Shown here piece by piece: positions 43,116-59,036 of a stretch of DNA of 59,036 bases. This stretch comes from Gemmatimonadales bacterium (lineage in GTDB: Bacteria > Gemmatimonadota > Gemmatimonadetes > Gemmatimonadales > GWC2-71-9). The stretch lies in NCBI GenBank assembly GCA_036270795.1, contig DATBBW010000111.1, positions 1-59,036 of the forward strand. Reading direction: 5' to 3'. How positions within the stretch are numbered: position 1 is the stretch's first letter; every line of letters begins with the position of its first letter. A model generated the notes under the pieces. The model was not told the origin of the DNA, did no database searches, and saw only the letters and a list, made by a program, of their open reading frames with translations. The translations under genes and the position numbers were made by a program.

Positions 43116-43201
43116 ACGCTCCCCGGCTGGCCACCGTTACGGTGTGGCACCAAGTTTAGCGACGTTCGCCCCAGCCGTCATTGCGCGCCGAGGAGACCTC
43201 C

Positions 43202-44986: not shown

Positions 44987-45010
44987 TGGCGGGCCTCGGC
45001 GCGACGCCGC
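44987..45010 (+). repeat. Direct repeat 1 (24 nt) upstream of a sigma-54 promoter; candidate activator site
   Basis: The sequence is tggcgggcctcggcgcgacgccgc and contains the dyad cggcg-cga-cgccg. Copy 2 lies 66 nt downstream. Confidence 0.5.
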
Positions 45011-45052
45011 ACGTCCGCCGCGCGTCGACGTCACACCACCCGAGAGCCAGCA

Positions 45053-45076
45053 TGGCGGGCCTCGGCGCGACACCGC
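45053..45076 (+). repeat. Direct repeat 2 (24 nt, 1 mismatch)
   Basis: The sequence is tggcgggcctcggcgcgacaccgc. It ends 67 nt upstream of the TGGCAC at 45143. Confidence 0.5.
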
Positions 45077-45142
45077 GCCCTCGCATCACCCCCTCATCGC
45101 TCCGACCGATGAGTCGCGTGGCGATTCACGACGACGCGGTTT

Positions 45143-45158
45143 TGGCACCGCCCTTGCG
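45143..45158 (+). promoter_or_regulatory. Perfect-consensus sigma-54 promoter of the 45214..46577 operon
   Basis: The sequence is TGGCACCGCCCTTGCG, matching 10 of 10 defined positions. The predicted TSS is near 45169, which is 45 nt upstream of ATG 45214. Confidence 0.65.
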
Positions 45159-45213
45159 TACTCGACCACCGGAGAGGGCAGCAGACGAACTACAAACTCC
45201 GGGAGGCGACATC

Positions 45214-45840
45214 ATGTCGAATCGCAGACACCTCAGCGTCCTGGCTAGTGCTGTCGCGGGGGCGCTCGCGCTGGTTGCCTGTAGCGACCAGACGAACGTC
45301 ACGACGGTGCCCAAACGCCCGAGCTTTTGGGGCGGCGTCACCGAGTGCGTCACCGGGAAGTGGACGGGCGGCGGTCGGATGGACCCGCCCAACCCAGACG
45401 TCCCAGATGGCGCAACGGGAACGAGCACGATGCAGGGGAAGGTCACGTTCGGGTTCAACGTCTTTCTCGGGACGGACCCGGTTAGCGGGCAATGCATCGT
45501 CACCAAGGGTGAGATCCAAGTCAACCACCACCCCTCGCACACCAGCTGGCACGTCTCGATCCACAACGGGGTGGATGACTTCAATGAAACCGTGTTCGCC
45601 GAGATCATCTCCCCGGACGCATCGGGCAGAGGCGTGTGTCTCGTCGTGGGCGAGACGCCCATCACGGCGCGCGTCGACGGGCAAAAAGGCACGGACCAGG
45701 TGCAAATGGAGCTCTGCGACAACGACCCCGACGCCCCGCAAAACAGCCGCACCGATGCGATGCGGTGGATCACCGCGGGGCACGGAGACACGGACCTCAC
45801 GTACTTGACAGGCGGTAACATCGTCGATCACGGGGCGTGA
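45214..45840 (+). CDS. Hypothetical lipoprotein (208 aa)
   Basis: GGGAGG lies 7 nt upstream. The lipobox is ALALVAC. I recognise no family. The first 293 codons of the track ORF are an artefact. Confidence 0.65.
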   Translation: MSNRRHLSVLASAVAGALALVACSDQTNVTTVPKRPSFWGGVTECVTGKWTGGGRMDPPNPDVPDGATGTSTMQGKVTFGFNVFLGTDPVSGQCIVTKGEIQVNHHPSHTSWHVSIHNGVDDFNETVFAEIISPDASGRGVCLVVGETPITARVDGQKGTDQVQMELCDNDPDAPQNSRTDAMRWITAGHGDTDLTYLTGGNIVDHGA

Positions 45841-45902
45841 TGGGCGATCCCATGCCAGCTCACGAGGATCAAGCCTCTTGGAATCGAGGAAGGAGCGCAC
45901 TG

Positions 45903-46577
45903 ATGAACGACATGAGAATACACGGGACGCACCACCTCGCCGCCCTCGGTGTGGTCGTCGCCCTGACCGCAGGATTGGCGGTGGCGGGGACCGCGCAGAC
46001 CGTCTCGGGCCAGGCGTTCAGCACGTACGTCAACACATCGGTCGCGTCCAGCATCCAGTCGCCGCTGGTGGTGCTGCCCGCCGTCTCGGGGACGGATGGC
46101 GCCGAAGCGGATGCAGAGGGCGCTGGGGTGACGGTCGCCAACACGCTGTCATCTGATTTCCTGAACAGTATCACGTCGGGCGAACTCGACACGAGCGCGG
46201 CCGGCGCGCAGAGCACCGCGAGTGCGGCCGATATCAACGTCCTGAACGGGCTGATCACCGCGGATGAAGTGATCGCCAACGCGACGAGCAGCCGCACCGG
46301 GAGCGGGGCCGTCAGCAACGCCGACGGTTCGACGTTCCAGAACTTGGTGGTGGCCGGCGTGGCGCTGACGACGGGCGATGGACCGGTGGCGCCGAACACG
46401 ACCATCGCCTTGTCTGGGGTCGGTTACGTCGTGTTAAACGAACAGACCCTCTCGGGGGACGGCGTCACGACCAGCGGGATCACGGTGAACATGATTCACG
46501 TGTACCTACAGAGCGCCCTCGGCGGCCCGACCGGCGAGATCATCGTCGGTTCGGCGACGACGTCCGTGGGTTCCTGA
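45903..46577 (+). CDS. Hypothetical secreted Ala/Thr/Ser/Gly-rich protein (224 aa)
   Basis: GGAAGGAG lies about 9 nt upstream of ATG 45903. The signal peptide ends in AVAGTAQT. The composition is beta-rich and low in charge, and there is no recognisable C-terminal sorting signal. Confidence 0.6.
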   Translation: MNDMRIHGTHHLAALGVVVALTAGLAVAGTAQTVSGQAFSTYVNTSVASSIQSPLVVLPAVSGTDGAEADAEGAGVTVANTLSSDFLNSITSGELDTSAAGAQSTASAADINVLNGLITADEVIANATSSRTGSGAVSNADGSTFQNLVVAGVALTTGDGPVAPNTTIALSGVGYVVLNEQTLSGDGVTTSGITVNMIHVYLQSALGGPTGEIIVGSATTSVGS

Positions 46578-46753
46578 TCTCGCGCACGAGCGGCGCCAGG
46601 TCTCGCGGGCCCGAGACCACGGAGCGCGGGGAGTAGCGGCTCAGGGGCTTGCCTGTCGCGGATGCAATTCCGCCGTGATGCGAGCGCACGCGGTGGGGAC
46701 CGCGCTGGCAAGTCCCGTTCCCGCTCGGCCGGGGGCGGTGTGTCGGTCGGGCG

Positions 46754-47332
46754 TCAGCGGCGAGCTGCGGGGGACTGGAGCTGGGCGTGGCGAAAGCATT
46801 TCACGAGGTGGTCATTCACCATCCCTACCGCCTGCATGAAGGCATAACAGATGGTCGGCCCGACGAAGCGGAAGCTCCGTTCGATCAGCGCGGCGCTCAT
46901 TTCGTCCGATTCGCGGGACCGCGCCGGGAGCTCCCGCAGACTGCGGCGGCGGTACTGCTTGGGCCTCCCCCCCACGAAGCCCCACAGGAAGCGGTCGAAC
47001 GAGCCCTCCCGCGCGCGCAATTCGAGAAACGCGCGGGCATTAGAGATCGCGGCGTGCACTTTCTGCCGGTTGCGCACGATGCCGGGATCCCGCAGCAACG
47101 CGGCGATCTTGCGGCGGTCGTAGCGCGCCAAGCGCTCCGGCTCGAACCCATCAAACGCCTCGAGGAAACGGGCGCGCTTGTGGAGAATCACGCGCCAGGA
47201 CAAGCCCGCCTGAAACCCATCCAGGACAAGCTTGGCGAATAGGTCCCGGTCGTCATGGAGCGGGACGCCCCACTCGGTGTCGTGATAGGCGACCATCAAG
47301 GGGTCGCCGTCGCCCCAGCAGCGCTTACGCAT
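46754..47332 (-). CDS. tag: DNA-3-methyladenine glycosylase I
   Basis: Motifs are CWGDGDPLMVAYHDTEWGVP, LVLDGFQAGLSWRVIL, GIVRNRQKV and VGPTICYAFMQAVGMVNDH. Confidence 0.92.
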   Translation of the reverse strand: MRKRCWGDGDPLMVAYHDTEWGVPLHDDRDLFAKLVLDGFQAGLSWRVILHKRARFLEAFDGFEPERLARYDRRKIAALLRDPGIVRNRQKVHAAISNARAFLELRAREGSFDRFLWGFVGGRPKQYRRRSLRELPARSRESDEMSAALIERSFRFVGPTICYAFMQAVGMVNDHLVKCFRHAQLQSPAARR

Positions 47333-47382
47333 ACGGAGGCGAATTCTGCACGGGCGGGCCCCCGGCCGGTAGTATAGACGCC

Positions 47383-48342
47383 ATGAAGTTCCTCCACGTC
47401 ACGGAGCAGCAGGGCCGCTACGCCGCCTCGCTCCGCGAGACCGCCATCCCGGTCCCGCAGCCCGGTGAGCTGCTGATCCGCGTCGCGGCGTCCGGCGTCA
47501 ACCGGGCCGACCTCTCGCAAATCGCCGGCCACTACCCCCCGCCCCCCGGGGAGCCCGACATCCTCGGCCTCGAGGTCGCGGGCACCGATGACGCCACGGG
47601 TGCCACCGTGTGCGCGTTGCTCGGCGGCGGCGGGCACGCCGAATACGTGGCGGCGCCCGTGGGGCAGGTGTTCGCGGCGCCGCCGGAGCTCGATCCCACG
47701 GTCGCCGCGGGGATCCCGGAGGCCTTCCTCACCGCGTTCGTCAACCTCGTGATCGAGGGCAGCCTCGCGGCGGGAGCCACCGCGCTGGTGCACGCCGGCG
47801 CGTCAGGGGTCGGGCTCGCGGCGATCCAGGTCGCCAAGTTGTGCGGCGCGCGCGTCGCGGCGACCACCCGCACGCGTGAGAAGCTTCCCGCGCTCGAGGC
47901 TGCAGGCGCGGATCTCGCGATTGACGCGGCGCGAGGGGACTTCGCGGCGGCGATCACCGCGCGCTGGGGCGCGGACCCCGTGGACGTGGTGCTCGATCCG
48001 GTGGGCCAGGCGAGCCTGGCGGGCGACCTGCGGGTGCTCGCTCCCGGCGGCCGCATTGTCTGCATCGCGACCATGTCGGGCGCGAGGGTCGAGCTGGACC
48101 TCGCCCAGCTCATGCGGAAACGCGCGCGCCTCGCTGGCTCTACGCTGCGCGCCCGTAGCCGCGCGGAGAAGGCGGCGCTCGTGACCCGGTTCTGCGCGGA
48201 GATCCTCCCAGCGCTCGCGTCCGGGGCGTTGCGCGTGACGCTCGACTCCGTGTTTCCTCCGCGGCGCGCCGCCGACGCGTTTCAGCGCATGCGCGAAAAC
48301 CGCAACGTCGGCAAAATCGTCATCGCGTGGACCGGCCGCTAA
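47383..48342 (+). CDS. NAD(P)H:quinone oxidoreductase (MDR superfamily, zinc-free type)
   Basis: Motifs are LIRVAASGVNRADL, the Rossmann motif LVHAGASGVGLAAIQ, and the typical ending NVGKIVI. Confidence 0.85.
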   Translation: MKFLHVTEQQGRYAASLRETAIPVPQPGELLIRVAASGVNRADLSQIAGHYPPPPGEPDILGLEVAGTDDATGATVCALLGGGGHAEYVAAPVGQVFAAPPELDPTVAAGIPEAFLTAFVNLVIEGSLAAGATALVHAGASGVGLAAIQVAKLCGARVAATTRTREKLPALEAAGADLAIDAARGDFAAAITARWGADPVDVVLDPVGQASLAGDLRVLAPGGRIVCIATMSGARVELDLAQLMRKRARLAGSTLRARSRAEKAALVTRFCAEILPALASGALRVTLDSVFPPRRAADAFQRMRENRNVGKIVIAWTGR

Positions 48343-48761
48343 CCGAGACTGCGAAAGTACCCCACCACGTCCGCGTTGCGGTAGAAGTACCACGCCGCGA
48401 GCGCGCCGAGCCCGAGGGCCTGCAGCGCCGCCCGCCAGGCGAGCGCCGCGGGGACGCGACCAGTCACCCCGACCGCGACCCCATAGACCGCAACCGTGGT
48501 CCAGAGCACCATGACGACATGCCGAGACCAGCGCTTGCGAGCGCGGAACCCATACGCGATCACCGCCATGAGCACGCCCATGGAGAGGAACAGCGGGCCC
48601 GCTACGCGCAGCCATTCGCCGCTCGTGACCGGTCGGCCGGCGATGCCGAAGGAGCCGACGCCGAGCGCCGCGAGGACCAGCAGCAGGCCGGCCCCCGCGG
48701 CGAACGCCGCCGCGAGCCGCCCGCCGAGCCGCATCAGGAACGGCATCTCCACCGCCGACAT
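48339..48761 (-). CDS. Small membrane protein (140 aa, about 4 TM helices)
   Basis: Only the last 140 codons of the 528-aa track ORF look protein-like and hydrophobic. The rest is antisense to 48825..49943. The stops overlap convergently with qor by 4 nt. Confidence 0.5.
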   Translation of the reverse strand: MSAVEMPFLMRLGGRLAAAFAAGAGLLLVLAALGVGSFGIAGRPVTSGEWLRVAGPLFLSMGVLMAVIAYGFRARKRWSRHVVMVLWTTVAVYGVAVGVTGRVPAALAWRAALQALGLGALAAWYFYRNADVVGYFRSLG

Positions 48762-48824
48762 GATGCTCAATCGGTCCCGTGAACGAGCGGCCGTCAAGAC
48801 TGGGGCGATGTATCTTGAGGGCGC

Positions 48825-49943
48825 ATGAAACTCCTGAGCAACGCCGTCGTCTTCGGCGTGGGGCTCGCGCGGGCGGTCACCGCGGCCGCGCAGACCACCC
48901 AGACCCTCAACATCTACGCGCAGGCGGGGGCGCACGCGCTCGCCCCCGCGGCGCTCCGCGCCCTCCCCCGCGTCTACGTCCCCAACTCGCACGACGGGAC
49001 CGTGTCGGTCATCGACCCCCGGACGTACCGCGTGGTGCGCACGTTTCGGACTGGGGCGCTGCCGCAGCACGTCGTGCCGTCCTACGATCTCACGACCCTC
49101 TGGGTGGCCAACAACCTGGGCAACACGCTGACGCCGATCGATCCCGGGACGGGGCGCGAGGGCAAGAACGTGCCCGTCGCGGATCCCTATAACCTCTACT
49201 TCACGCCGGACGGGCGGTTTGCCATCGTCGTCGCCGAACGGCTGCGGCGGCTCGACTTCCGGGACGCGCGCACGATGGCGCTGGTCCAATCCGTGCCGCT
49301 GTACTGCAAGGGCGTCGATCACCTGGAGTTCACTGCCGACGGGCAGAGCGCCATCGCCACGTGCGAGTTCTCCGGCCAGCTCGTGAAGCTGGATCTGACG
49401 AGCCGCGCCGTGACGGGGTACCTGACGCTCGATCCTGGAGGGCTGGGCCGCGCGGCGATGCCGCAAGACATCCGCTCCGCCGCGGACGGGAAGGTGTTCT
49501 ACGTGGCCGACATGGTGGCGAACGGCGTGTTTCTCGTCGACCCCGTCGCGTTCCAGCGCATCGGGTTCATCGCCACTGGGAAGGGCACGCACGGCCTGTA
49601 CCCGAGCCGCGATGGGCGGCTGCTGTACATCACCAACCGGGGCTGGAACACGACGGCGGGCGGCCGCCACGGGCCGGGCTCGGTGACCGTGCTCGACCTC
49701 GCCACCCGCCAGATTGTCGCCACTTGGCCGGTCCCGAGAGGCGGCAGTCCCGATATGGGGAACGTGAACGCCGATGGCACGGAGCTGTGGCTCTCCGGAC
49801 GCTACGACAACGAGGTCTATGTGTTCGACACCGAGACCGGACGCCTCACCCATCGGATCGCCGTGGGACGGGAGCCGCACGTGCTGTGCGTGTGGCCGCA
49901 GCCGGGACGATATTCGCTCGGCCACACGGGGAACATGAGGTGA
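48825..49943 (+). CDS. Secreted YVTN-family beta-propeller repeat protein
   Basis: There is a signal peptide, followed by repeated motifs YVPNSHDGTVSVID, LWVANNLGNTLTPID, FYVADMVANGVFLVD, LYITNRG...VTVLD and VYVFD. Confidence 0.8.
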   Translation: MKLLSNAVVFGVGLARAVTAAAQTTQTLNIYAQAGAHALAPAALRALPRVYVPNSHDGTVSVIDPRTYRVVRTFRTGALPQHVVPSYDLTTLWVANNLGNTLTPIDPGTGREGKNVPVADPYNLYFTPDGRFAIVVAERLRRLDFRDARTMALVQSVPLYCKGVDHLEFTADGQSAIATCEFSGQLVKLDLTSRAVTGYLTLDPGGLGRAAMPQDIRSAADGKVFYVADMVANGVFLVDPVAFQRIGFIATGKGTHGLYPSRDGRLLYITNRGWNTTAGGRHGPGSVTVLDLATRQIVATWPVPRGGSPDMGNVNADGTELWLSGRYDNEVYVFDTETGRLTHRIAVGREPHVLCVWPQPGRYSLGHTGNMR

Positions 49944-49950
49944 TCACGCC

Positions 49951-50730
49951 ATGAGCCGGATCGCGGGCCAGCTGATCCTCATCACCGGCGCGAGCTCGGG
50001 CATCGGCGCCGCCTGTGCGCGGCGGTTCGCCGCCGAGGGGGCGAACCTCGTGCTGTGGGCGCGCCGTCGGGACCGGCTCGAGCAGCTCGCCGCCGAGCTG
50101 TCGGAGCGGCATCGGCGCGTGACGCGGGTGGCCGCCATCGACGTGCGCGACCGTGCCGCTGTGACGCGCGCCGCCGACGCGCTCGTGGCCGAGGGGGCGG
50201 TCCCCGACGTCCTGCTCAACAACGCGGGGCTCGCGAGCGGCCTTGCCAAGCTGCACGAGGGCGATCCGGACGACTGGGATCGGATGATCGACACCAACCT
50301 CAAAGGGCTGTTGTACGTCAGCCGTGCCATCCTGCCGCACATGGTGGCGCGGCGCCGCGGGCACGTCGTGAACATCGGCTCGACGGCCGGCCACATGACC
50401 TACCCGATGGGCAACGTGTACAACGCCACCAAGTTCGGCGTGCGCGCGCTCACCGAAGGCATGAACCTCGACCTCGCCGGCACGCCCATCCGGGTGTCGA
50501 GTGTGGATCCGGGGTTCGTGGAGACGGAGTTCTCCGAGGTGCGCTTCCACGGCGACCGGGAGCGCGCGCGGGCGGTGTATCAGGGATTCCAGCCGCTCAC
50601 CCCCGAGGACATCGCCGACACGATTGCGTACGTCGTGAACCTGCCCGAGCACGTGAACATCGTCGATCTCATCATCGTGCCCACGGCGCAGCGCAACGTC
50701 TATGTGGTGGACCGCGACCCAGGTCGCTAG
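49951..50730 (+). CDS. Short-chain dehydrogenase/reductase (YdfG-like)
   Basis: Motifs are TGASSGIGAACARRF, NNAG and the catalytic YNATK. Confidence 0.88.
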   Translation: MSRIAGQLILITGASSGIGAACARRFAAEGANLVLWARRRDRLEQLAAELSERHRRVTRVAAIDVRDRAAVTRAADALVAEGAVPDVLLNNAGLASGLAKLHEGDPDDWDRMIDTNLKGLLYVSRAILPHMVARRRGHVVNIGSTAGHMTYPMGNVYNATKFGVRALTEGMNLDLAGTPIRVSSVDPGFVETEFSEVRFHGDRERARAVYQGFQPLTPEDIADTIAYVVNLPEHVNIVDLIIVPTAQRNVYVVDRDPGR

Positions 50731-50746
50731 GGTCTGCGCCGCAGCC

Positions 50747-50760
50747 CCGCAACGTTGCGG
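50747..50760. promoter_or_regulatory. Perfect 14-bp palindrome CCGCAACGTTGCGG, about 175-190 nt upstream of the 50935 sigma-54 promoter (candidate activator site, or a minimal stem after the SDR gene)
   Basis: The sequence is self-complementary over all 14 nt. It lies 17 nt after the SDR stop codon. Confidence 0.3.
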
Positions 50761-50934
50761 CCGTGCCGGGGGTCTAGCGGCGGCCGGTGCGGATTCCGAG
50801 CGGGCGCCGCCTCCGCGGCTGCTTGATTAAAGCGTCTGGCCCGATGCGGCAGTTGAGAACCTGCGGCCTGGCCTCCTCCGGGGAACGCCCGATTGTTGCA
50901 TTCATGCTACAGCCGACGTGGATACCGCTCCGCA

Positions 50935-50950
50935 TGGCGCATAAATTGCA
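50935..50950 (+). promoter_or_regulatory. Sigma-54 promoter (TGGCGC-N5-TTGCA) of the precursor-peptide cassette
   Basis: The sequence is TGGCGCATAAATTGCA, matching 9 of 10 defined positions. The predicted TSS is near 50961, which is 51 nt upstream of ATG 51012. Confidence 0.65.
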
Positions 50951-51011
50951 GCGTCACCGCAGCGGGGTCGCTCATGTGGAGCTCCCAGCGCTTCATGAAG
51001 GGAGGGTAGCG

Positions 51012-51155
51012 ATGCATCCGCAACACGTGAAACGGCCGTTTGTGGCGCCTACGCTGCACCGGGAGGCGTCGCTCGCCAGCGTGACGCTGTGGAGTAGTGG
51101 AGGTGACGCTGGAGTCGAGGAACAGGAACACGAGGGATATGAGGGGTCAACGTAA
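51012..51155 (+). CDS. Candidate RiPP precursor peptide (47 aa) with a lasso-type leader motif
   Basis: GGAGGG lies 5 nt upstream of the ATG. The peptide is MHPQHVKRPFVAPTLHREASLASVTLWSSGGDAGVEEQEHEGYEGST. The segment F-xx-P-x-L-xxx-A-xxxxx-T-x has the spacing of the lasso leader motif YxxPxLx3Gx5Tx. Local GC3 is lower than in neighbouring genes. Confidence 0.6.
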   Translation: MHPQHVKRPFVAPTLHREASLASVTLWSSGGDAGVEEQEHEGYEGST

Positions 51156-51181
51156 GTGATACGAAGCGGTTGCCCCTTGTT

Positions 51182-51211
51182 GCGCCAGCCGCCGCCTTAA
51201 GCGGCTGGCGC
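51182..51211 (+). terminator. Intercistronic stem-loop between the precursor ORF and the kinase gene (attenuator or processing candidate)
   Basis: The arms gcgccagccgc (51182..51192) and gcggctggcgc (51201..51211) are exact reverse complements, with an 8-nt loop. There is no T-tract. Confidence 0.4.
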
Positions 51212-51233
51212 GCGTTCTGCGCCGGGTTCCACT

Positions 51234-52148
51234 GTGCCGACCCCCTTCCTCGTCTGCGACGATGCCCCCCTCCGAGCCAGCCTGACGGCATGGCTTGAGA
51301 AGGGAGGGCTCGCTCCGTCGACCGCCTTGACCCTCGTCGTTCAGGTCGGCGATCCACCGCCCCTCGACGCCGATGATCGCCCGGTGTTCCACCAGCCTGA
51401 CGTCCTCATTCGTTCCGGCCCCCCGCACGGCACGCTGACGCTGTCCTGGGAGCGGGCCCCGGCCCTGGCCGAGATCGCGCCCGGCACGCAGACCGCGCGC
51501 GTGACCCTGTCGCGGCTGGCGGTGGCGCGACTCCAGGAGTGCACCTGCACGTTTTTCATGGCGGTCTTGATCTTCCTCTTGCGGCGCGCGGGCTGGCACC
51601 ACGTGCACGCCGGCACGGCGATCGACCCGGCGGGGCGCGGCTGGCTGATCGCCGGCGATAGCGGGGCCGGAAAGTCGACGACTGCGGCGCTGTTCGCGTC
51701 GCATGGCTGGCAGGTCGGCACCGACGACGCCACGTTTCTCGCACCCGCGGGCGCACAGGTGGCCGCCGTGGCCTACCGCGCCCCCATCGCCTTGCGCCCG
51801 GACGCGCAGCGCGCGCTCGGCCGCTCCGGCGGGATCCCGGTCGCGGGGCGCCGCAAGGCGGCGTACTGGCCCGAAGACCTCGGGGGACGCTGGGCACCGA
51901 AGGTCGAACCCGAAATCGTGGCATTCACATCGGTGGGGGAAGGACCCACTCGGGCGGCGCGGCTCGGAGCGCGTGCGGCCTTGGCGCAGCTGGTGCGCTG
52001 GTCGGCCTGGGTGGTGCTCGAGCCCGACTTGGCCCAGGAGCACCTCGACTTGCTCGCGCGGCTCGCGCGACAGGCCCGGAGCTATCGCGTCAGCTTGGGG
52101 CCCGATCTCTTCACCGACGTGGCCGGCCTCCCCGACCTCGTTCGATGA
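51234..52148 (+). CDS. HPr-kinase-related serine kinase (lasso/RiPP-associated type)
   Basis: The P-loop GDSGAGKST sits in an HprK C-terminal-domain-like context (WLIAGDSGAGKSTTAALF). The protein is 304 aa with a GTG start. Confidence 0.75.
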   Translation: MPTPFLVCDDAPLRASLTAWLEKGGLAPSTALTLVVQVGDPPPLDADDRPVFHQPDVLIRSGPPHGTLTLSWERAPALAEIAPGTQTARVTLSRLAVARLQECTCTFFMAVLIFLLRRAGWHHVHAGTAIDPAGRGWLIAGDSGAGKSTTAALFASHGWQVGTDDATFLAPAGAQVAAVAYRAPIALRPDAQRALGRSGGIPVAGRRKAAYWPEDLGGRWAPKVEPEIVAFTSVGEGPTRAARLGARAALAQLVRWSAWVVLEPDLAQEHLDLLARLARQARSYRVSLGPDLFTDVAGLPDLVR

Positions 52149-52420
52149 CGGATCGCTACCGCCGCCACCACGACCTGCGGCTCGCCGCGCTCGAGGACGA
52201 GGGTGTGATCCTGCACCTGGGCTCGCGCAGCTACTTCACCGTGAGCGAAAGCGGCGTCCTCATCTTTGAGGCGCTCGCGACGCCCCACAGTGTCGAGGAG
52301 CTCGTCGCAGTCCTCCAGGCTCGCTACGAGGTCAATGCCGAGCAGGCCGAGGCGAGTGTGCGCGATTTCCTCGAGCGTTGCCGCGCCGCCGATCTGCTGG
52401 AAATCGAGGCAGGCGCGTGA
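52145..52420 (+). CDS. PqqD-family protein (RiPP recognition element, lasso B1-like)
   Basis: There is an ATGA overlap with the kinase gene. The 91-aa protein reads LRLAALEDEGVILHLGSRSYFTVSESGVLIFEAL...SVEELVAVLQARYEV...VRDFLERC, the typical PqqD pattern. Confidence 0.8.
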   Translation: MTDRYRRHHDLRLAALEDEGVILHLGSRSYFTVSESGVLIFEALATPHSVEELVAVLQARYEVNAEQAEASVRDFLERCRAADLLEIEAGA

Positions 52421-54144
52421 GCGCCTCGGCGTCGCTTCCCTGGGCGTGGCGGCTCCGCGCGGTGCTTACGATGGCAATCGTCCCCCCCCTCCTGCACGTC
52501 ATGTCGTTTGCGCGGATCGCCTCGTGGCTCGGCGGACGTCCGCGGTGGGCCGCCCCCTCCGTCGCTGGGTTGCGCGACGACGTGCTGGCACACTGGGTGG
52601 ATGCGCTGCTGCGGCACTGGCCTCCGCCATGGCGGTATACGTGTCTCAAGCGCGCCGCGGTGCTCTATCATCTGCTGCGCCGGGCCGGTCGGCCGGTGGA
52701 GCTGCGGATCGGCGTGCGGCGTGCCGGCGGCACGGGCGGTGCGCTCGCGGCGCACGCCTGGTTGGTGCGGGATGGCGTTCCCTATCTCGAGCCCCAGTCG
52801 GGACAGCCGTCCCTTCATGCGGTCATCGTCCGTCTGCCGGAAGGAAGCGGAGTGAAATCTCTGGCCGACGATCCTGCGCAACTCCTGCTCGAGACGCTGC
52901 GACTCCAGAGCGAGCGCAGTCGGGACGAGCTGCGCACGGCGTGGGCGAACGCCCGTACGGACGGGCTCGCCCGCCTCGTCGCGTTCGAGGGATGCGCGCT
53001 CTGGTTGGCGCACCGCCTGGCGCGGATCGACGCGCGCCTGCTGTTGCCGTTCGACTTCGCGAACTGGTTGCAGCGGCGGGTGCGCAAAGAGGTTGCGCGC
53101 AATCTGCTCGTCGGCGCCCAGGTGGACGCGCTCGCCGGCGTCTTCGCCGCCGACGGGATTCCCTACGTACTGCTTAAGGGCGCCGCCCGGCAGGCGTTAG
53201 GGGATGCCTTAGCGTACGCCGCGGTGCGTTCGATGCGCGACGTCGATGTCTTGGTGCCGGCGGCCCGCGCCCCGGAAGCCTGGCATCAGCTGCGCCGCCG
53301 CGGCTACGAACGCGCCGCTCCGCCGGGCGCGACCCCGACCCTCCACCACCACTTCCCGCCGTTATGGGATCGGGCCCGCATTACGGTCGAGCTACATACC
53401 TCTACCTCGCGCCGCCTGCCCCCGCTCGCGGCATGGCGCCGCGCGATCTGCGCGGCGCGCACGGTGGAGCGTGAGGGGCGTACCCTTCCCGTCCCTTCAG
53501 ACACCGAGCTGCTATGGCATGCGATCACCCACGGGCTCGATCAGCAGGCGCGCGCCTTTCGCCTGCAGCCACTCCTCGACGTGGCGCTGCTCTGCGCGAG
53601 CGGCGCCGAGATCGACTGGGGAGTGATCGTGGCACGGTTCGCCGGGGACGAGATCGAACACCATCCGCGCGCCATCGCCTGGCTTCGCGCGGCGAGCTGG
53701 CTCGTCGGTCGACCGCTACCACCGGAACTCTCGACGGGGCTCCCCCCGTTCGAGTTAGGGCGCGCGCTGCGGTGGCGGCTGGCGGTGTTCAGGCACACCG
53801 ACGCCGGCAGTCGGAGCGGCGAGCGGTTGTTAGAGGAAGGCATGCGCTGCGAGATCGGGCTTGGCTTGTCGCCCGCCGTCCGCGGTGCCGGGATCGGCCA
53901 GCGAACCCGTGGCCACGTCGCGGCCTCCGCGGCGCAGGGTATGTACCGTGCGTGGCGCGTCGCCGAACGCCTAGCTCGACCCGAGGCGCCACTGGTGCGC
54001 CAGCCGCACGATACCGACGCCCTCCGCCTCGCTGTGGCTCACCCGGAACCGGGCCGCACGCTTCACAACGAACATGGGCCTTTGGGCGAGACGATGCTCG
54101 AGCACCAGCACGTGCAGCGCGTAGACACCGCGGCTCAGGCTTAG
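52417..54144 (+). CDS. Fusion: lasso-type B2 transglutaminase-like cysteine protease (N-terminal) plus uncharacterised nucleotidyltransferase family (C-terminal)
   Basis: There is a GTGA overlap with the PqqD gene. The B2 part is RYTCLKRAAVLYHLLRRAG...ELRIGV...AHAWLVRDGVPYLEP (Cys and His). The NTase part is IPYVLLKGAA...MRDVDVLVP...HHHFPPLWD...VELHTS. Confidence 0.75.
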   Translation: MSASASLPWAWRLRAVLTMAIVPPLLHVMSFARIASWLGGRPRWAAPSVAGLRDDVLAHWVDALLRHWPPPWRYTCLKRAAVLYHLLRRAGRPVELRIGVRRAGGTGGALAAHAWLVRDGVPYLEPQSGQPSLHAVIVRLPEGSGVKSLADDPAQLLLETLRLQSERSRDELRTAWANARTDGLARLVAFEGCALWLAHRLARIDARLLLPFDFANWLQRRVRKEVARNLLVGAQVDALAGVFAADGIPYVLLKGAARQALGDALAYAAVRSMRDVDVLVPAARAPEAWHQLRRRGYERAAPPGATPTLHHHFPPLWDRARITVELHTSTSRRLPPLAAWRRAICAARTVEREGRTLPVPSDTELLWHAITHGLDQQARAFRLQPLLDVALLCASGAEIDWGVIVARFAGDEIEHHPRAIAWLRAASWLVGRPLPPELSTGLPPFELGRALRWRLAVFRHTDAGSRSGERLLEEGMRCEIGLGLSPAVRGAGIGQRTRGHVAASAAQGMYRAWRVAERLARPEAPLVRQPHDTDALRLAVAHPEPGRTLHNEHGPLGETMLEHQHVQRVDTAAQA

Positions 54145-55182
54145 CCGCTGATACGCGAGCTCAAGCGTCACCGTCTCACCCGCCCGGGCAGTGATCTCGA
54201 TGCCCTGGCGGTTCGAACGGGTGCCGTGCAGCACGTGCCAATCTCGAGCGAGCTGAACGCCGACCACCGCGCCTCGCACGGCGCGCACCGCTCGTAGGCG
54301 AATCCGCACGGTGAGCGGCTGGTCCACGGTGTAGACCGGCGACGCTCCTCCTGGCGCATCGACGAGGTCGACGGCCTCGATGACCAGAGACGCGTGGTTT
54401 GGGTCGCCTTCCCCGGCGAGCGTGTGCGCAGCCGCGGCGTCGGCCTCGATCACGCGGTCGTACACTTCAAACGCCTCCTCCGGCGTCCCCGTGCGCGCGA
54501 CCCGGCCTCGATGCAGGAGGACGGCTTGGTCACACAACTGCTCGATGAGATAGCGGTCGTGCGAGACGAGCACGAGCGTGGTGCCGCCTGCCTGGAACGC
54601 CAGGATACGCTCGAGACAGCGGTCCCGAAACGCCGCGTCGCCCACCGCGAGGGCCTCGTCGATGAGCAAGATGTCCGGCTCGACGTGCGCGGCGATGGCG
54701 AAGCCTAGCCGCAGCGACATGCCCGCGGAATAGAACTTGACCGGGACGTCGGCGAACGCTTCGAGCTCGGCGAAGCGGAAGATCGCGTCGAGCTTGGTGC
54801 GCAGCTGGTGCCGGTCCAATCCCAACACCGCGCCTTGGAGGAAGACGTTCTCGCGCCCCGTGAGATCCCCATGGAAGCCGCCCCCCAGATGCGTGAGCAA
54901 CGCGAGGCGGCCCGTCACGTCGATGGTCCCGCGGGTCGGCACCATCATCCCGGCGATCAGTTTGAGCATCGTGGACTTGCCAGAGCCGTTCGCGCCCATT
55001 ACGGCGCAGGTCGTGCCCCGCGCGATCCCGAACGACACATCCTCGAGCGCCCAGAAGGCGCGGCGCAGCGGTGCCACTCCGTCCCCGCGCCAGGGCCACA
55101 GGCCCAACGTCAGGTCTCCCAACGAGCGACCGCGCAGGCGGAAGCGCTTCCACACGCCCACGGCGGCGATGGCATCGGTCAT
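53971..55182 (-). CDS. wzt: ABC transporter ATP-binding protein, Wzt/TagH type, with a C-terminal beta-sandwich extension
   Basis: Walker A is GANGSGKST, the signature is YSAGMSLRLGF, and Walker B is ILLIDEALAVGD. A C-terminal domain of about 150 aa follows the NBD. Confidence 0.88.
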   Translation of the reverse strand: MTDAIAAVGVWKRFRLRGRSLGDLTLGLWPWRGDGVAPLRRAFWALEDVSFGIARGTTCAVMGANGSGKSTMLKLIAGMMVPTRGTIDVTGRLALLTHLGGGFHGDLTGRENVFLQGAVLGLDRHQLRTKLDAIFRFAELEAFADVPVKFYSAGMSLRLGFAIAAHVEPDILLIDEALAVGDAAFRDRCLERILAFQAGGTTLVLVSHDRYLIEQLCDQAVLLHRGRVARTGTPEEAFEVYDRVIEADAAAAHTLAGEGDPNHASLVIEAVDLVDAPGGASPVYTVDQPLTVRIRLRAVRAVRGAVVGVQLARDWHVLHGTRSNRQGIEITARAGETVTLELAYQRLSLSRGVYALHVLVLEHRLAQRPMFVVKRAARFRVSHSEAEGVGIVRLAHQWRLGSS

Positions 55183-55185
55183 GCC

Positions 55186-56019
55186 CTAGACGGACTCGGG
55201 AAAGAAGGGCTCGGTGACGCGGAACAGCAGCACGCCCACGACCAGCAGCACGGTCCCCGCCCCGAACGGATAGAGCAGACTTGCCAGGGCCGGCGGGCGT
55301 CCGCCGAAGAGCGCCGTGCGCGCGCCTTCGAATACGGCGACCAGTGGGTTGAGATCGTACAGTGCGCGGTAGTGCGTCGGCACAGCCGAGGACGCGTAGA
55401 CGACGGGGGTTATCAGCAGCCAGAGACGGACACCGACATCGACCAGGTGGCTGAAGTCGTGGTAGAAGACGTTCAGGGCCGAACAGATCAGCGTCAACCC
55501 AGTGACGATCATCACGAGCACCACGGCGACGGGGAGCAACCACAAGGCCGCGAAGGACGGGAGCGCGGTGCGGTAGGCGATTAGGAGCACTGCGAGCAGC
55601 AGACCCGCGACCATGGCATCGACCATGGCTGCCGCGAGGGCCGCGAGCGGAATCGTCGCCTTGGGGAAGGGCGTGCGCGATACGAGCGCCGCGTGGGCCG
55701 TGATGCTGCGCGTCCCGCGCGGCAGTCCGCCGGCCACGTAGGTCCACAGGACAACCCCGGTGTACGCGAAGAGGGGATAGGGGATGTCGCCGGAAGGCGC
55801 CTTGAGGAAAGAGCCGAAGACGATGACGTAGACAACGAGTTCTCCCAGCGGTCGGCCGAGTGCCCACAGCGCGCCGAGGAATGTCTGGCGGTAGCGCGTC
55901 TTCAAGTCCCGCACAGTCAACTGATAGGTCAGAAAGGCGAATTGCGAAATGGTTGCCACGCGGGCTTTCACAGGCGGCACGATTCGACCAAAGCTAACAG
56001 CCGAGCGAAGACCGTACAA
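55186..56019 (-). CDS. wzm: ABC-2 type polysaccharide/polyol-phosphate export permease (Wzm)
   Basis: The N-terminal motif is LTVRDLKTRYRQTFLGALWALGRPL, followed by 6 TM helices. The stop is 3 nt before the wzt ATG. The start is uncertain (TTG 56019 or GTG 55971). Confidence 0.85.
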   Translation of the reverse strand: MYGLRSAVSFGRIVPPVKARVATISQFAFLTYQLTVRDLKTRYRQTFLGALWALGRPLGELVVYVIVFGSFLKAPSGDIPYPLFAYTGVVLWTYVAGGLPRGTRSITAHAALVSRTPFPKATIPLAALAAAMVDAMVAGLLLAVLLIAYRTALPSFAALWLLPVAVVLVMIVTGLTLICSALNVFYHDFSHLVDVGVRLWLLITPVVYASSAVPTHYRALYDLNPLVAVFEGARTALFGGRPPALASLLYPFGAGTVLLVVGVLLFRVTEPFFPESV

Positions 56020-56169
56020 ATGCAGGACACTCGGCTGCTTCGTCCGCGCCGCGTGGCGTAACCCGTGGTGAATCGAATGGCCAGGCAGAGACTCGAAGGG
56101 GACATCGAGATCGAGGGGCGACGGGCAGGCCGTGACAGTCGTGTCGCGCGACTCGGGTCGGCGGCCACG

Positions 56170-57180
56170 TCACGTGGCGGCCGGTGCCCGACGGGAACTC
56201 GCGGCGCGGGCGGCCGCGGCGAACCGCTGCACAATCTCCCCCGTCGGCTCAATGCTCCTAATCCCGCTCACGCTCTTGCCGGCCTGCCAGTAATCCTTGG
56301 ACGACGGCCCGGCGACGTGGCCCCGCTTGAGCCGCCACGCGGAGTTGAGCGCGTAGAGGGCCCGCATCCAGTGCTTGGTGCGGCGGCCGCGCAGCAGCCA
56401 GCGCGCCAGCGGACCGGCCTTCAGGCCCACGCGCGCCACGTGCGGCGTGCGAATCACGGCGAGCGGGACGCCGGTGACGCGCTCGGTCAGCACGATGTCG
56501 TCCTCTGCGGCGGCGACAATGGCGCGTTTGTAGTCGAGGTGGGCGGTGCACTCGGTCGTCGCGATGAAGCGCGTGCCGAGCTGCGCACCGGCGTACCCCA
56601 GCTCGAGCGCCGCGACGAATCCCGCGGCATCGCCGATGCCGCCGGCGCACACGAGCGGCACCCCCAGGTCCCCGAGCTCGTCGCGCAGCTGCTCGGCGCT
56701 GCGCGGCCCCGCGTGCCCGCCGGCCCGGTTATTGACGGCGATGAGCCCCCGCACGCCCGACTCGAGGCCCTTGAGTGCCCACTTCCGCTCCGTCACGTCG
56801 TGGTAGACGAGCCCACCGACCGGGCGGACGTGATCGACCACCCAGCGTGGCTTGCCGAGCGACGTAATAAAAAAGCGCACGCCTTCCTCAAGCGCGACAT
56901 CCACCCACCGCTTCATCCGGTCGAGGTACAGCTTGGACGACTGCTCGATGAGCACGTTCATCCCGATGGGCCGGGACGTGAGACGCCGGATCAGCCGCAG
57001 CCCCTCGCGCAGGTCGTGGCCATGCACATACACCAGGGAGAGCGGCTGCACGATGCCGATGCCACCGGCCTCCGACACGGCGGCCACGAGCTCGGGATTG
57101 GAGCACGGGAACATGGCGCCGCCAATGAGCGGCACGGCCACCCGCGCGTCCCGCGTGAGCGGGGTGTCGAGCGAGATCAC
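56170..57180 (-). CDS. Nitronate monooxygenase / FabK-like FMN oxidoreductase family protein
   Basis: Motifs are [39 protein letters not shown] and [11 protein letters not shown]. The GTG start overlaps the upstream stop (GTGA). Confidence 0.8.
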
Positions 57181-57665
57181 GCCGGCGGCACCGGCCCGAT
57201 GCGCCACCGCACCGTGGCGCGCGCCACGACGTCCCCCGCCGCATCCGTGATGACCGACGGGTAGTCGTACTCGGCTGCGCGGGTGGCGGCGGGCGCGGCA
57301 CAACGCGCTTCGGCGGTGAGCGTGCCCCGCGCCTTCTTCAAGAACGTGATCGAGAGCGCGATCGGGATGCCCCGCACGGTCGCCGGCAGGCCGAGGGTCA
57401 CTGCGAGACCGCTCGTGACCTCGGCGAGGTTCGCCAGCGCTACGGCGTGCACCGAGTCGAGATGATTGCGGACCTGTCGGCGGTCCACCATCTGGACCTT
57501 CGCATACCCCGGCGCGAGCTCGAGGACCCGGGGGCGCACGGTCCCGGTGTAGGGGACCAGGCGGCCGAGCAGCCAGCTGAAGAGCCGCCGGCCCCCGGGC
57601 AGTGGGGCGAGTCGCTCCCACCAGACGCCGAGCCGCGTCGCCGGGCTCGCCCGAGGCGTGGTCAT
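57177..57665 (-). CDS. Hotdog-fold (DUF4442/PaaI-like thioesterase) protein
   Basis: The protein is 162 aa. Motifs are [24 protein letters not shown] and GTLTAEARC. Confidence 0.65.
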
Positions 57666-57747
57666 GGGCGAATTCTAAGCCACAGGGAGGATGTCCGAGC
57701 GGCGGCCACCGCCCAGCGGGCACCCCGGCGCCCCGCGTGGCGCGCTG

Positions 57748-59036
57748 CTAAGGGGTCCGGGCCGACACGCCGTTGCCCAGCAGGTAGCGCTCGACGAACA
57801 ACAGCGTGGCGTAGAACTGGAAGTCCTGGTTCGCCTTCTTGCGGAACCCGTGACCCTCGTCCTTGGCCATCAGGTACCACACCGGCACCCCGCGTTGCTT
57901 GAGCGCCGCCACCATCTGTTCGGACTCGGTGCGGGGGACACGAGGGTCGTTCATTCCTGCGACAATGAACAGTGGCTTCGTCACCTTGGCGACGTTGGTG
58001 AGCGGCGCCGTGCGCTCCATCCACGCCCGGATCGTCGAGTCACGCTCGTCGCCATATTCGACCCGCCGCAGGTCCTGACGGTAGCCCGAGGTGTGCGCGA
58101 GGAACGTCGCCAGGTTCGACATCCCCACCACGTCCACCGAACAGCAGATCCGGTCGTCGTACCGGGTGGCGGTCACGAGGGTCATGTGGCCGCCGTAGCT
58201 GCCCCCGGTGATGAGCACGCGGTCGGCGTCGAGCTCGGGCCGCGCCCGGATCCAGTCGAGCAGGGCGCCGATATCGCGGTACGCGCCTTCGCGGAGCACG
58301 CCGTTGTCGAGCTTCACGAAGGTCTTGCCGTAGCCCGTCGAACCCCGGATGTTGGGGAAGACGAGGGCGACGCCGAGCTCTTGCAGGTAATAGTTGTTGC
58401 GACCCAGGAATCCCGGCCGCGACTGGCCCTCGGGCCCGCCGTGGATGTTCACGATCACCGGCCGGCGTCCCGAAAACCGCGCCGGCGGCTTGTAGAGGAA
58501 GCCCGCAACGGCGTGGCCGTCGAAGCTCGTCCAGTGGACCAGCTCGGGCCGGGCGAAGCCGCTCGGCTGGAGCCCGGCCGTCTCGCTCTCAGTCCAGCGC
58601 ACCAGCTGGCCGCGCGCCAAGTCGAGGGAGTACGCATCCGCGGTGGTCTGCGCGGAGCTGTAGGTGAAGCCGAGCTCGGCGCCGCTGCGGCGCCAGCGCA
58701 GCCCGCCGATCAGCCCGGGGGGGAGCGTCGGCACCCGCCGCTCCACCCCGGTCTGGGCGTTCGCCACGTGCAACACGCTGCTCCCGTCCTCGTTGGTCAC
58801 GAACGCGATCAAGCGCCCGTCGGGCGCGACATCGAACTCCTCCACGTCCCACGGGATGGCGGTGGTGAGGAAGCGGTAGCGCCGGGTGCTGAGGTCCAGG
58901 TAGGCGAGCCGGTGGAACTCCGCGCCGAGGTCCGTCGTGAGGTAGAGACCCGCACCGTCGCGGCTGAAGCGGGGGGCACCGTAAGCGACGGTGTCCGCGT
59001 CCACGGGCGCCGTGAGCAGGGTCTTCTCGCCCCGGT
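57748..59036 (-). CDS. S9-family serine peptidase (beta-propeller + alpha/beta-hydrolase); 5' end lies outside the window
   Basis: The catalytic Ser motif is ITGGSYGGHMT. Other features are IVNIHGGPEGQ, the Asp in AGMNDPRVP, and GHGF. The frame stays open to the window edge. Confidence 0.88.
   Translation of the reverse strand, partial: RGEKTLLTAPVDADTVAYGAPRFSRDGAGLYLTTDLGAEFHRLAYLDLSTRRYRFLTTAIPWDVEEFDVAPDGRLIAFVTNEDGSSVLHVANAQTGVERRVPTLPPGLIGGLRWRRSGAELGFTYSSAQTTADAYSLDLARGQLVRWTESETAGLQPSGFARPELVHWTSFDGHAVAGFLYKPPARFSGRRPVIVNIHGGPEGQSRPGFLGRNNYYLQELGVALVFPNIRGSTGYGKTFVKLDNGVLREGAYRDIGALLDWIRARPELDADRVLITGGSYGGHMTLVTATRYDDRICCSVDVVGMSNLATFLAHTSGYRQDLRRVEYGDERDSTIRAWMERTAPLTNVAKVTKPLFIVAGMNDPRVPRTESEQMVAALKQRGVPVWYLMAKDEGHGFRKKANQDFQFYATLLFVERYLLGNGVSARTP

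Follow-up and report, generated by a model that had tools for sequence, protein, structure and literature searches.

A cyclase-less cassette of lasso-type maturation genes in Gemmatimonadota as a candidate source of linear, phosphate-decorated peptides

Results

Organisation and conservation of the cassette

This work concerns a gene cassette on a 59,036-bp contig (DATBBW010000111.1) of a Gemmatimonadales metagenome-assembled genome (MAG) from soil, the whole of which is referred to below as the window. Reading along the forward strand, the cassette consists of a sigma-54-type promoter, a short open reading frame (ORF) for a 47-residue precursor peptide, a hairpin, and genes for an HprK-like kinase, a PqqD-family protein and a lasso-type B2 protease fused to a nucleotidyltransferase-fold domain. 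We consider it probable that these form a self-contained operon for a ribosomally synthesised peptide with post-translational modifications (RiPP), which has descended from the machinery of the phosphorylated lasso peptides, has dispensed with the macrolactam cyclase and gives rise to a linear, phosphate-decorated product. An initial reading of the DNA letters alone (the sequence-only reading) had listed the promoter, the ORF, the hairpin, the three enzyme genes and the ATGA/GTGA overlaps that link them; all of these are present, and scans with domain libraries agree with the gene identities that it gave.

The promoter, TGGCGCATAAATTGCA (GG-N10-GC; 50937-50952, + strand), begins 75 nt 5' of the start codon of the precursor gene (51012-51155, + strand), which has a GGGAGGG ribosome-binding site 5 nt upstream. 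The gap between the precursor and kinase genes holds a GC-rich hairpin, GCGCCAGCCGC-N8-GCGGCTGGCGC (51182-51211, + strand), a perfect 11-bp inverted repeat with arms at 51182-51192 and 51201-51211. The kinase, an HprK/ScmC-like protein of 304 residues with the P-loop GDSGAGKST (51234-52148, + strand), is followed by the 91-residue PqqD protein (52145-52420, + strand; Pfam PqqD 61 bits) and by the fusion gene (52417-54144, + strand), which encodes a B2 cysteine protease (~52417-52890) and an NTP_transf_5 nucleotidyltransferase-fold domain (~52930-53990). The start codon of the PqqD gene overlaps the stop codon of the kinase gene (ATGA at 52145) and the GTG start of B2 overlaps the stop codon of the PqqD gene (GTGA at 52417), an arrangement by which the enzyme genes would be translationally coupled. 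This GTGA overlap, together with the N-termini of the homologues, is the reason for taking the GTG at 52417 as the true start of B2 and not the upstream TTG at 52378.

To place the cassette, a scan of genomes gave 25 loci, every one of them from a Gemmatimonadota MAG, and a scan of metagenomes gave a further 80; pooled, these make 92 distinct loci, across which the kinase is 41-64% identical to that of the window. All of the cassette loci that carry an organism name are from Gemmatimonadota MAGs. Homologues of the nucleotidyltransferase and the kinase as such are numerous in metagenomes, where the named sources are mostly Gemmatimonadota with a few labelled Chloroflexi or Rokubacteria. Among the 62 loci in which the downstream genes could be assessed, PqqD is present in 59, B2 in 58 and the nucleotidyltransferase in 58, in the same order as in the window, and a survey of co-occurrence, proposed along with the sequence-only reading, finds a leader-bearing ORF adjoining the kinase gene in the related loci. 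The cassette is a conserved unit, and it continues past the boundaries first given for it (50935-54144), which were too narrow, to the convergent Wzt and Wzm genes at 53971-56019.

Precursor peptides

A hidden Markov model of the leader, built from the first loci, detects one to three precursor ORFs in essentially every locus with upstream DNA. These are nearly always directly 5' of the kinase gene, and several loci have two or three of them. Over 88 distinct precursor DNA sequences the entropies at the three codon positions are 0.71, 0.65 and 1.43, the third being about twice the first and second, and the leader is under purifying selection. The leader consensus is RKPFVEPTLKEEASLADVTL, with ISGG after the cleavage point, and in the same 88 sequences Phe is found at position -17 in 99%, Pro at -14 in 97%, Leu at -12 in 61%, where Ile is also seen, and Thr at -2 and Leu at -1 in 100%. 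The rule for lasso leaders is Tyr(-17), Pro(-14), Leu(-12) and Thr(-2) (PMC10368454), and F(-17), P(-14), L(-12) and T(-2) of the window leader fall exactly on these positions. Cleavage is therefore predicted after L26, which would divide the precursor of the window into a leader, M1-L26, of MHPQHVKRPFVAPTLHREASLASVTL and a core, W27-T47, of WSSGGDAGVEEQEHEGYEGST, the latter having the 21 residues that had been proposed for it at the outset.

The cores are hypervariable. The 87 distinct ones range from 5 to 59 residues in length and are made up of 31% Gly, 11% His and 10% Ser. The core of the window, with six Asp or Glu and no Lys or Arg, is strongly acidic and in this is unusual in the family, so that the earlier description of the product as an acidic peptide suits the window but not its relatives, whose cores are rich in Gly, His and Ser. 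At least four His are present in 26 of the 87 cores, often as HGHGHG repeats, and at least two Cys in nine. Long His/Gly-repeat cores such as HSGGAGHGDGGDLHGHGHGHELGHGHGHD... and TSGGGGYGPGHGPGHGPGH..., and cores with two spaced Cys such as ASGDLAPCTGENCPG and LSCVDPNDPACQSI, occur among the precursors of loci L036-L038, L040, L041, L043-L045, L047, L048, L053, L055, L061, L063 and L064. There are hints here of metal-binding and disulfide-loop subfamilies, and the Gly/His-rich and Cys-pair cores suggest that the product may be secreted as a signal, may bind metal or may act as an antagonist.

By looking at the distribution of hydroxyl residues we could identify candidate sites for the kinase. 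Position 2 of the core is Ser in 67 and Thr in 11 of the 87 cores (78/87, 90%), and Gly predominates at the next two positions, 3 and 4, the junction motif reaching into the core. In 84 of the 87 position 2 or position 3 is Ser or Thr, while the rest of the cores is 12% Ser/Thr. The C-terminal residue is Ser or Thr in 39 cores (45%). In the core of the window the candidate phospho-acceptors are S2, S3 and the S-T at the C-terminus.

The sequence-only reading had the C-terminal Ser of the precursor phosphorylated. This fits the data poorly, given that the peptide of the window ends in Thr and that a hydroxyl residue is found half as often at the C-terminus as at position 2. The best of the alternatives to our preferred reading, though still an unlikely one, keeps the same machinery and the linear product but has the kinase act on a C-terminal Ser or Thr in the manner of PadeK and PsmK, with Ser2 being only the context of the cleavage site. 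Every Firmicutes lasso kinase studied so far uses the C-terminal Ser (PMC8498205, PMC6993621), Ser/Thr is about three-fold enriched at the C-terminus of the cores, and the peptide of the window ends in -GST. On the other hand, in over half of the cores the last residue is one that could not accept a phosphate (H, A, V, L, D, F, G and others), though the kinases keep their catalytic residues, and for an N-proximal Ser in the core, where 84 of the 87 have their Ser or Thr at position 2 or 3, there is a precedent in BsfK. This kinase phosphorylates Ser3 of the core in a leader-dependent manner and is stimulated by the RiPP recognition element (RRE) protein BsfB1, which also serves B2 (PMC10368454).

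Kinase, PqqD protein and B2-nucleotidyltransferase fusion

The key residues of the kinase, G146-K147-S148-T149 of the P-loop and the metal-binding D164-D165, are invariant in 37 homologues, and with them the protein has both the P-loop and the catalytic Asp-Asp pair of the HprK-fold kinase that belongs to the accessory set of phosphorylated lasso peptides. Its scores against curated models are low: 20.5 bits with Pfam Hpr_kinase_C, which is under the cut-off, and 15-21 bits with TIGR04352, TIGR04355 and TIGR04249, for which the cut-offs are 125-200; the Pfam ScmC model (PF27840) gives faint matches on the kinases of the family. A profile made from 32 members of the family matches HprK/P in the PDB at E=1.2e-5, the match spanning the P-loop and the DD motif. 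The AlphaFold model of the kinase (predicted local distance difference test score, pLDDT, 91) has phosphoenolpyruvate (PEP) carboxykinases rather than HprK as its top Foldseek matches. The catalytic domain of HprK shares the PEP-carboxykinase fold. The model would thus put the kinase in the PEP-carboxykinase/HprK fold, and the specific link to HprK is suggested by the sequence-profile match.

In the NCBI record the kinase is VH116_06390, a 'hypothetical protein' of 273 residues. The homologues keep the N-terminus of the 304-residue form, which starts at the GTG at 51234, W20 and L21 being nearly invariant, and from this comparison the true start probably lies upstream of the deposited one. The name in the record, and scores far under the TIGR cut-offs, also run counter to an earlier remark that cassettes of this type are annotated by family name. 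An exhaustive profile search gave 45 clusters (at 50% identity) at E<1e-30 and about 1,470 remoter relatives at E<1e-10. Because the distant relatives include one beside a radical SAM gene, we count the kinase, by its sequence, as one of a broad family of HprK/ScmC-like proteins that are associated with RiPPs. The relative in question, on the P0259 contig (JGI 3300056388), scores 125 bits against the family profile and is followed by the radical SAM gene and a 65-residue ORF, with a PqqD/Transglut_core3 pair 5 kb downstream, which makes it a further combination of such RiPP parts.

The PqqD protein is a predicted RRE, a leader-binding chaperone like B1 of the lasso clusters. In NCBIfam it comes closest to the lasso PqqD chaperones, with scores of 45 and 39.5 bits that fall under the cut-offs. 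The B2 domain scores 55.8 bits with the lasso B2 model NF033537 (cut-off 33) and 51.7 bits with Transglut_core3, so that the RRE and the B2 protease of a lasso cluster are both present, and the second domain of the fusion scores 114.9 bits with NTP_transf_5. The TCL(K/R)R motif of B2 (TCLKR in the window), AHAWL and the D-V-D (DxD) of the nucleotidyltransferase are conserved in the 21 loci examined. The two are usually separate genes in the relatives and are fused in the window, in L001 and in L009. As in the phosphorylated lasso clusters, then, a DxD protein of family PF14907 accompanies B2, either beside it or fused with it. Fusions of B2 and nucleotidyltransferase, as well as HprK-like kinases, are documented in clusters of the paeninodin and pseudomycoidin type (PMC8498205, PMC6993621), and the link that had been drawn from the window to the accessory enzymes of these clusters holds, the set of enzymes being the same. 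For pseudomycoidin it has been found that PsmK requires its DD motif and that PsmN, with its DxD, is required for the addition of one or two hexoses to the phospho-Ser (PMC6993621).

In the AlphaFold model of the fusion the nucleotidyltransferase domain has a pLDDT above 90, and the tail, residues 524-575, one below 50. The solved structures nearest to the model of this domain include LnuA, ANT(2'')-Ia and FKRP, a phospho-ribitol transferase. That the fold should be nearest to those of two O-nucleotidyltransferases, LnuA and ANT(2''), and of a phospho-alditol transferase, FKRP, lends something to an alternative in which phosphorylation is an activation step, the phospho-Ser either going on to dehydroalanine or becoming nucleotidylated, and the product carrying dehydroalanine, a Cys thioether or a nucleoside monophosphate adduct. 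The cores with at least two Cys (9/87) would suit it, and a PF14907 gene stands beside a kinase gene in a phosphonate cluster (PMC8942020). However, no lyase or cyclase domain was detected, most of the cores have no Cys, and the sole experimental datum for the enzyme family is the addition of hexose. It would seem improbable, more so than phosphorylation of the C-terminus, and a phosphate that stays on the peptide and is decorated there is the reading we prefer.

Absence of a cyclase from the cassette and its flanks

Lasso peptides are defined by their cyclase. There is no SGGxDS/Asn-synthase ORF near the cassette in the window, and in ~985 kb of related loci there is no PP-loop/Asn-synthase-like ORF save for GuaA-like ones in L022 and L023 and an AsnB in L032. 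These were considered as cyclases and rejected: the PP-loop ORF of L022 and L023 looks like GuaA, judged from the motif alone, and the ORF of L032, 8.8 kb from the kinase gene, is a genuine AsnB. The only AsnB homologue of the window (11483-13369, - strand) starts with MCGIAG, scores 418 bits with TIGR01536 against a cut-off of 267 and is closest to the XrtA/PEP-CTERM amidotransferase. Both the lack of a lasso cyclase at the cassette and the identity of the distant AsnB homologue as a genuine glutamine-dependent amidotransferase had been predicted by the sequence-only reading, and both are borne out, the former also in the related flanks. The same reading was to be given up if a cyclase lay next to the cassette or if homologous cassettes had no small ORF; a cyclase is adjacent in none of ~100 related loci, and the homologous cassettes do carry the small ORF.

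The AsnB gene sits in a large exopolysaccharide (EPS) locus at ~6500-31300 of the window. This locus also has genes for a Wzy_C O-antigen ligase-like protein, a Polysacc_synt flippase, an acyltransferase and a GNVR/CbiA tyrosine-kinase-like protein, and in addition to its XrtA/PEP-CTERM-type AsnB it holds the activator gene at 27014-28648 (- strand).

The cores point the same way. The residues needed for a lasso ring (Gly, Ala, Ser or Cys at position 1 together with Asp or Glu at positions 7-9) are found in only one of the 87. Only seven have Gly, Ala, Ser or Cys at position 1, 30 have no Asp or Glu at all and 14 have nine residues or fewer, while the core of the window, with W1, D6 and E10, lacks the residues at both ends of such a ring. 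Judged by these residues, most of the cores could not be cyclised even by a cyclase acting in trans. Since there is no cyclase-like gene in the flanks and the cores are unfit for a lasso, the cyclase-less state of the cassette is a property of the whole family and not an artefact of the assembly.

These results already speak against an ordinary split lasso cluster, in which a cyclase encoded elsewhere closes the macrolactam. In favour of such a cluster, the leader is canonical for a lasso, as are B1 and B2, B2 passes NF033537, the visible part of the genome is 59 kb, and the Chloroflexi loci described below have a close homologue of the nucleotidyltransferase (43% identity) beside a cyclase-like Asn-synthase homologue. 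All the same we regard a split cluster as very improbable, with a single ring-compatible core in the family, no cyclase-like ORF in the ~1 Mb of flanking DNA of the 92 loci and the AsnB of the window a genuine one within its EPS locus.

A probable exporter

Convergent with the fusion gene is a gene for a Wzt-type ABC (ATP-binding cassette) ATPase that carries the substrate-binding domain Wzt_C at its C-terminus (53971-55182, - strand; ABC_tran 66 bits, Wzt_C 48.9 bits), and next to this is the gene for its partner, a Wzm-type ABC-2 membrane permease (55186-56019, - strand; ABC2_membrane 51 bits). The 3' ends of the Wzt and fusion genes overlap by 174 nt (53971-54144), the tail of the B2-nucleotidyltransferase protein that is encoded there being modelled with low confidence. 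A Wzt homologue is found at the same convergent position, ~1.7 kb after the end of the kinase gene, in 24 loci, and has Wzm beside it in 17. More than 20 loci show this tight convergent layout; in L001 and L106 Wzt is co-directional. Where at least 3.5 kb of DNA is available 3' of the kinase gene, the Wzm/Wzt pair is present in 18 of 39 distinct loci, and 19 of the 39 have an adjacent exporter. A full-length exporter (ABC_membrane and ABC_tran) takes the place of Wzm/Wzt in L028, and at the same position L006, L012, L067 and L068 give tblastn matches to an exporter of the L028 type.

From this arrangement Wzt is the probable exporter ATPase of the cassette. An exporter had at first been thought to be missing; while this is correct for an exporter of the McjD type, the Wzm/Wzt_C ABC-2 pair adjoins the cassette.

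Wzt_C domains recognise glycan caps. For this reason, and with the best NCBIfam matches of Wzt being exporters of teichoic acid, galactan and O-antigen, glycosyltransferase-like ORFs flanking the unit in L043 and L049, and the large EPS locus in the same window, the enzymes and Wzm/Wzt might be supposed to serve a cell-surface glycopolymer for which the peptide is a primer, carrier or regulator, as in a Ser-phosphate-linked glycan that leaves the cell through a transporter of the teichoic-acid/O-antigen type, and not a free secreted RiPP, but no glycosyltransferase adjoins Wzm/Wzt in the window, a hypervariable core is atypical of a structural primer, half of the loci are without Wzm/Wzt, an ABC exporter of the peptide type taking its place in some, and we give this little credence.

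Promoter and hairpin

The sigma-54 element of the window reads TGGCGC-N5-TTGCA. Of 30 homologous precursor genes, 22 have a GG-N8-TTGC element 62-92 nt 5' of the start codon, for which the rate expected by chance is 1.4% per gene (binomial P ~1e-34). There are two sigma-54 activator genes in the window, one of the NtrC type (27014-28648, - strand) and one without a receiver domain (39685-41097, + strand) that is followed by a gene for a tetratricopeptide repeat protein. In L007, L032, L044, L047, L048 and L060 genes for NtrC-type sigma-54 activators lie 1.7-4.6 kb upstream, and L053 carries a near-identical NtrC-type activator gene. With the GG/GC spacing and the presence of genes for bacterial enhancer-binding proteins the promoter has the marks of sigma-54 control, and its use by sigma-54 is predicted. 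The activator at 39685-41097 was considered as an orthologue of those adjacent to the cassettes; it is 35-46% identical to them and 39% identical to the second activator of the window, by which orthology is not established.

The hairpin is present at the matching position in L002, L004, L007, L010, L016, L018, L021, L025-L027 and many other loci. The best hairpin energy has a median of -36.5 kcal/mol after precursor genes, compared with -26.9 kcal/mol for control segments (P=5e-26), and when GCGCCAG-N6-30-CTGGCGC palindromes were located in 1.08 Mb of loci, 59 of the 64 were within 120 nt 3' of a precursor stop codon. The GCGCCAG/CTGGCGC segment is invariant while, by inspection, the inner and outer positions of the stem co-vary. 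No Rfam family matches anywhere in the window, and so the hairpin is not a known RNA. Since 59 of the 64 copies come after a precursor gene, a generic terminator or a repetitive extragenic palindromic (REP) element can also be ruled out. It is likely to be a cassette-specific leaky terminator, attenuator or RNA-stabilising element, and is possibly a binding site for a protein or an RNase. The conservation of promoter, leader and hairpin is not due to chance.

Variant cassettes and neighbouring genes

Some loci depart from the usual gene set. L028 (9622-13160) has a precursor, kinase, PqqD and the full-length ABC exporter without B2 or the nucleotidyltransferase, and in L011 (9977-12632) kinase, PqqD and nucleotidyltransferase are followed by the precursor, without B2. 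L049 (7872-12833) has the kinase and nucleotidyltransferase and then two ORFs that are glycosyltransferase-like as judged from their N-termini alone. The same two ORFs are found in L043 (2858-8566), where they accompany Wzt/Wzm after the kinase, PqqD and B2.

The surrounding genes differ among the loci, save for the sigma-54 activator genes and some neighbours that are specific to a clade. In the window the 5' neighbour is a short-chain dehydrogenase gene (49951-50730), the cassette lying on the + strand between it and the convergent ABC pair. One subclade (L078-L080, L086, L088, L092, L093, L095, L098, L104 and L107) has a conserved gene ~450-800 nt 5' of the kinase gene and directly 5' of the precursor genes, which is absent from the window. 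Its product is a hydrophobic protein of 114 residues (MRMIIGYVAGFACAVLAALGG...) that looks membrane-embedded and might be an immunity or transport accessory protein. A gene for a VanZ-like membrane protein is found beside the cassette or the Wzm/Wzt pair in L001 (4477-5658), L032 (11162-12220), L024 and L100, in the last two ~3.9 kb after the kinase gene.

Discussion

Comparison with known systems

The closest functional precedent is given by the bsf clusters (bsfA, K, B1, B2, N, C and D) for phosphorylated lasso peptides in Bradymonadales (Duan et al, 2023, PMC10368454). These share with the cassette an HprK-like kinase, a stand-alone PqqD RRE, B2, an N gene of the NTP_transf_5 type and a YxxPxL leader motif (-17 to -12). 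The window, however, has no cyclase (C), and its core has neither the Gly1 nor the Asp8 of the bsf ring. There is a conserved hydroxyl residue at position 2 of the core, the penultimate residue of the leader is Thr where that of bsf is Ile, and the exporter is Wzm/Wzt_C whereas that of bsf is a D-type ABC protein. The paeninodin and pseudomycoidin clusters (padeCAKB1B2D and psmCAKB1B2ND) have the same accessory set, of which the DD of the kinase and the DxD of the nucleotidyltransferase, essential in PsmK and PsmN respectively, are conserved here. Their kinases target the C-terminal Ser of a peptide that is later cyclised, while the cassette lacks a cyclase and its cores share no conserved C-terminus. 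Its genes are also in another order, A-K-B1-B2N, and the operon is under predicted sigma-54 control.

The HPr-rel-A and SynChlorMet systems (NCBIfam TIGR04352, TIGR04353, TIGR04355, TIGR04249 and TIGR04248), which are defined bioinformatically, also pair an HprK-like P-loop protein with a PqqD-family chaperone. The cassette belongs to neither by score: the matches are 20.8 bits for HprK_rel_A and 15 for HprK_rel_B against cut-offs of 200, 25.7 for PqqD_rel_X against 35, 18.7 for ScmC against 125 and 19.9 for ScmD against 100. It differs from them in having no second kinase or radical SAM genes and in having the lasso-type B2 and leader instead. No radical SAM gene is present among the neighbours scanned (43181-59004 of the window) or the genes called in L001-L004 and L032.

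A different combination is found in two loci labelled Chloroflexi, L030 (10001-14091) and L031 (9655-13775), which have an NTP_transf_5 protein, a cyclase-like Asn synthase, an ScmC-like kinase and a precursor. The NTP_transf_5 protein is 43% identical to the domain of the window and the kinase 25%. The precursor, MKRPYETPRLVEYGPIADRTL followed by QTPGQSALTRNE..., has Y(-17), P(-14), L(-12) and T(-2)L(-1) in its leader and then Q-T, and its core has no Asp or Glu at positions 7-9. The Asn-synthase homologue lacks the N-terminal Cys and has the lasso cyclase as its best match, at 161 bits, which is under the cut-off. PqqD and B2 are absent. These loci may represent another non-canonical lasso-derived system, and their arrangement without PqqD or B2 suggests that lasso-type components have been shuffled among lineages.

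As for the exporter, the same ABC2_membrane permease and Wzt_C ATPase make up the Wzm/Wzt exporters of O-antigen and teichoic acid. What sets the pair apart from these is that its neighbour is a RiPP cassette and that the window has no glycosyltransferases close to it, and for it we propose a decorated peptide as substrate.

Proposed pathway

The pathway that we infer in all its steps, with the regiochemistry and the identity of the cap being its weakest links, would run as follows. The sigma-54 promoter would drive strong transcription of the precursor gene, and the hairpin would let only part of the transcripts pass into the coupled enzyme genes. PqqD, as the RRE, would bind the leader through F(-17)xxP(-14)xL(-12)...T(-2)L(-1) and present the peptide to the kinase, which would phosphorylate it near the start of the core, most likely at core Ser2 (S28). 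That PqqD should be as conserved as the kinase is explained by the precedent of BsfK, a kinase that is leader-dependent and RRE-stimulated. The nucleotidyltransferase-fold domain would then decorate the phosphate, with a hexose as PsmN does, a nucleotide or a phospho-alcohol. PqqD would also present the peptide to the B2 cysteine protease, which would cut after L26 to leave a linear peptide with a free N-terminus and a phosphodiester decoration, in the window on the core WSSGGDAGVEEQEHEGYEGST, and the adjacent Wzm/Wzt_C ABC-2 transporter would export it. For this core the calculated monoisotopic mass is 2209.867 Da when unmodified, 2289.834 Da with HPO3 and 2451.886 Da with a hexose as well.

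Several observations weigh against this reading. It is built on computation and the literature. The match of the kinase to HprK is weak by sequence, all of the curated family models scoring under their cut-offs. The phosphorylation site comes from conservation alone, and it could instead be the protease that recognises Ser2-Gly3-Gly4; the C-terminus too is enriched in Ser/Thr, at 45% compared with ~16%. B2 or the nucleotidyltransferase is absent from a few loci (L011, L028, L043 and L049), and so not every step of the pathway can be obligatory. About half of the loci have no Wzm/Wzt, and in L043 the pair stands beside the ORFs with glycosyltransferase-like N-termini; with these neighbours and this patchy presence it might serve a glycan. 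The lack of a cyclase is a result for the window and the related flanks, and one encoded elsewhere in the genome might act in trans.

With these points in mind we still favour the self-contained, cyclase-free operon. A fuller version of it can be put forward only tentatively, and with distinctly less confidence than the operon itself. It would be a new class of RiPPs common in soil Gemmatimonadota, linear, with an RRE-guided phosphate on core Ser2 that bears a phosphodiester cap, released by B2 and exported by Wzm/Wzt_C, with Wzt_C reading a phospho-sugar cap as it does those of O-antigens, the His/Gly or Cys-pair cores being the functional part, perhaps in metal binding or signalling, and expression under sigma-54 control.

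Implications

Measured against a lasso cluster, the cassette has the leader rule and the RRE with B2, and has neither the cyclase nor a ring-competent core. Its parts, the fusion of B2 and nucleotidyltransferase among them, were already known; in the literature searched we found no description of the cyclase-less form, and the combination is a well-supported candidate for a plausible new class of linear phospho-decorated RiPPs. The rules used to mine genomes for lasso peptides (RODEO, antiSMASH) require the cyclase, and the family would therefore be missed or labelled only as 'RRE-containing'.

The rest of the lasso machinery, that is the leader, the RRE, B2, the kinase and the nucleotidyltransferase-fold enzyme, appears to live on as a pathway of its own in a phylum that has been little studied. 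If this is true, the products would be a new class of linear phospho-decorated RiPPs, the cassette would offer a clean, cyclase-free system in which to work out the chemistry of PF14907 enzymes such as PsmN and BsfN, and the ABC-2 exporters of the Wzt_C type would be extended to peptide substrates.

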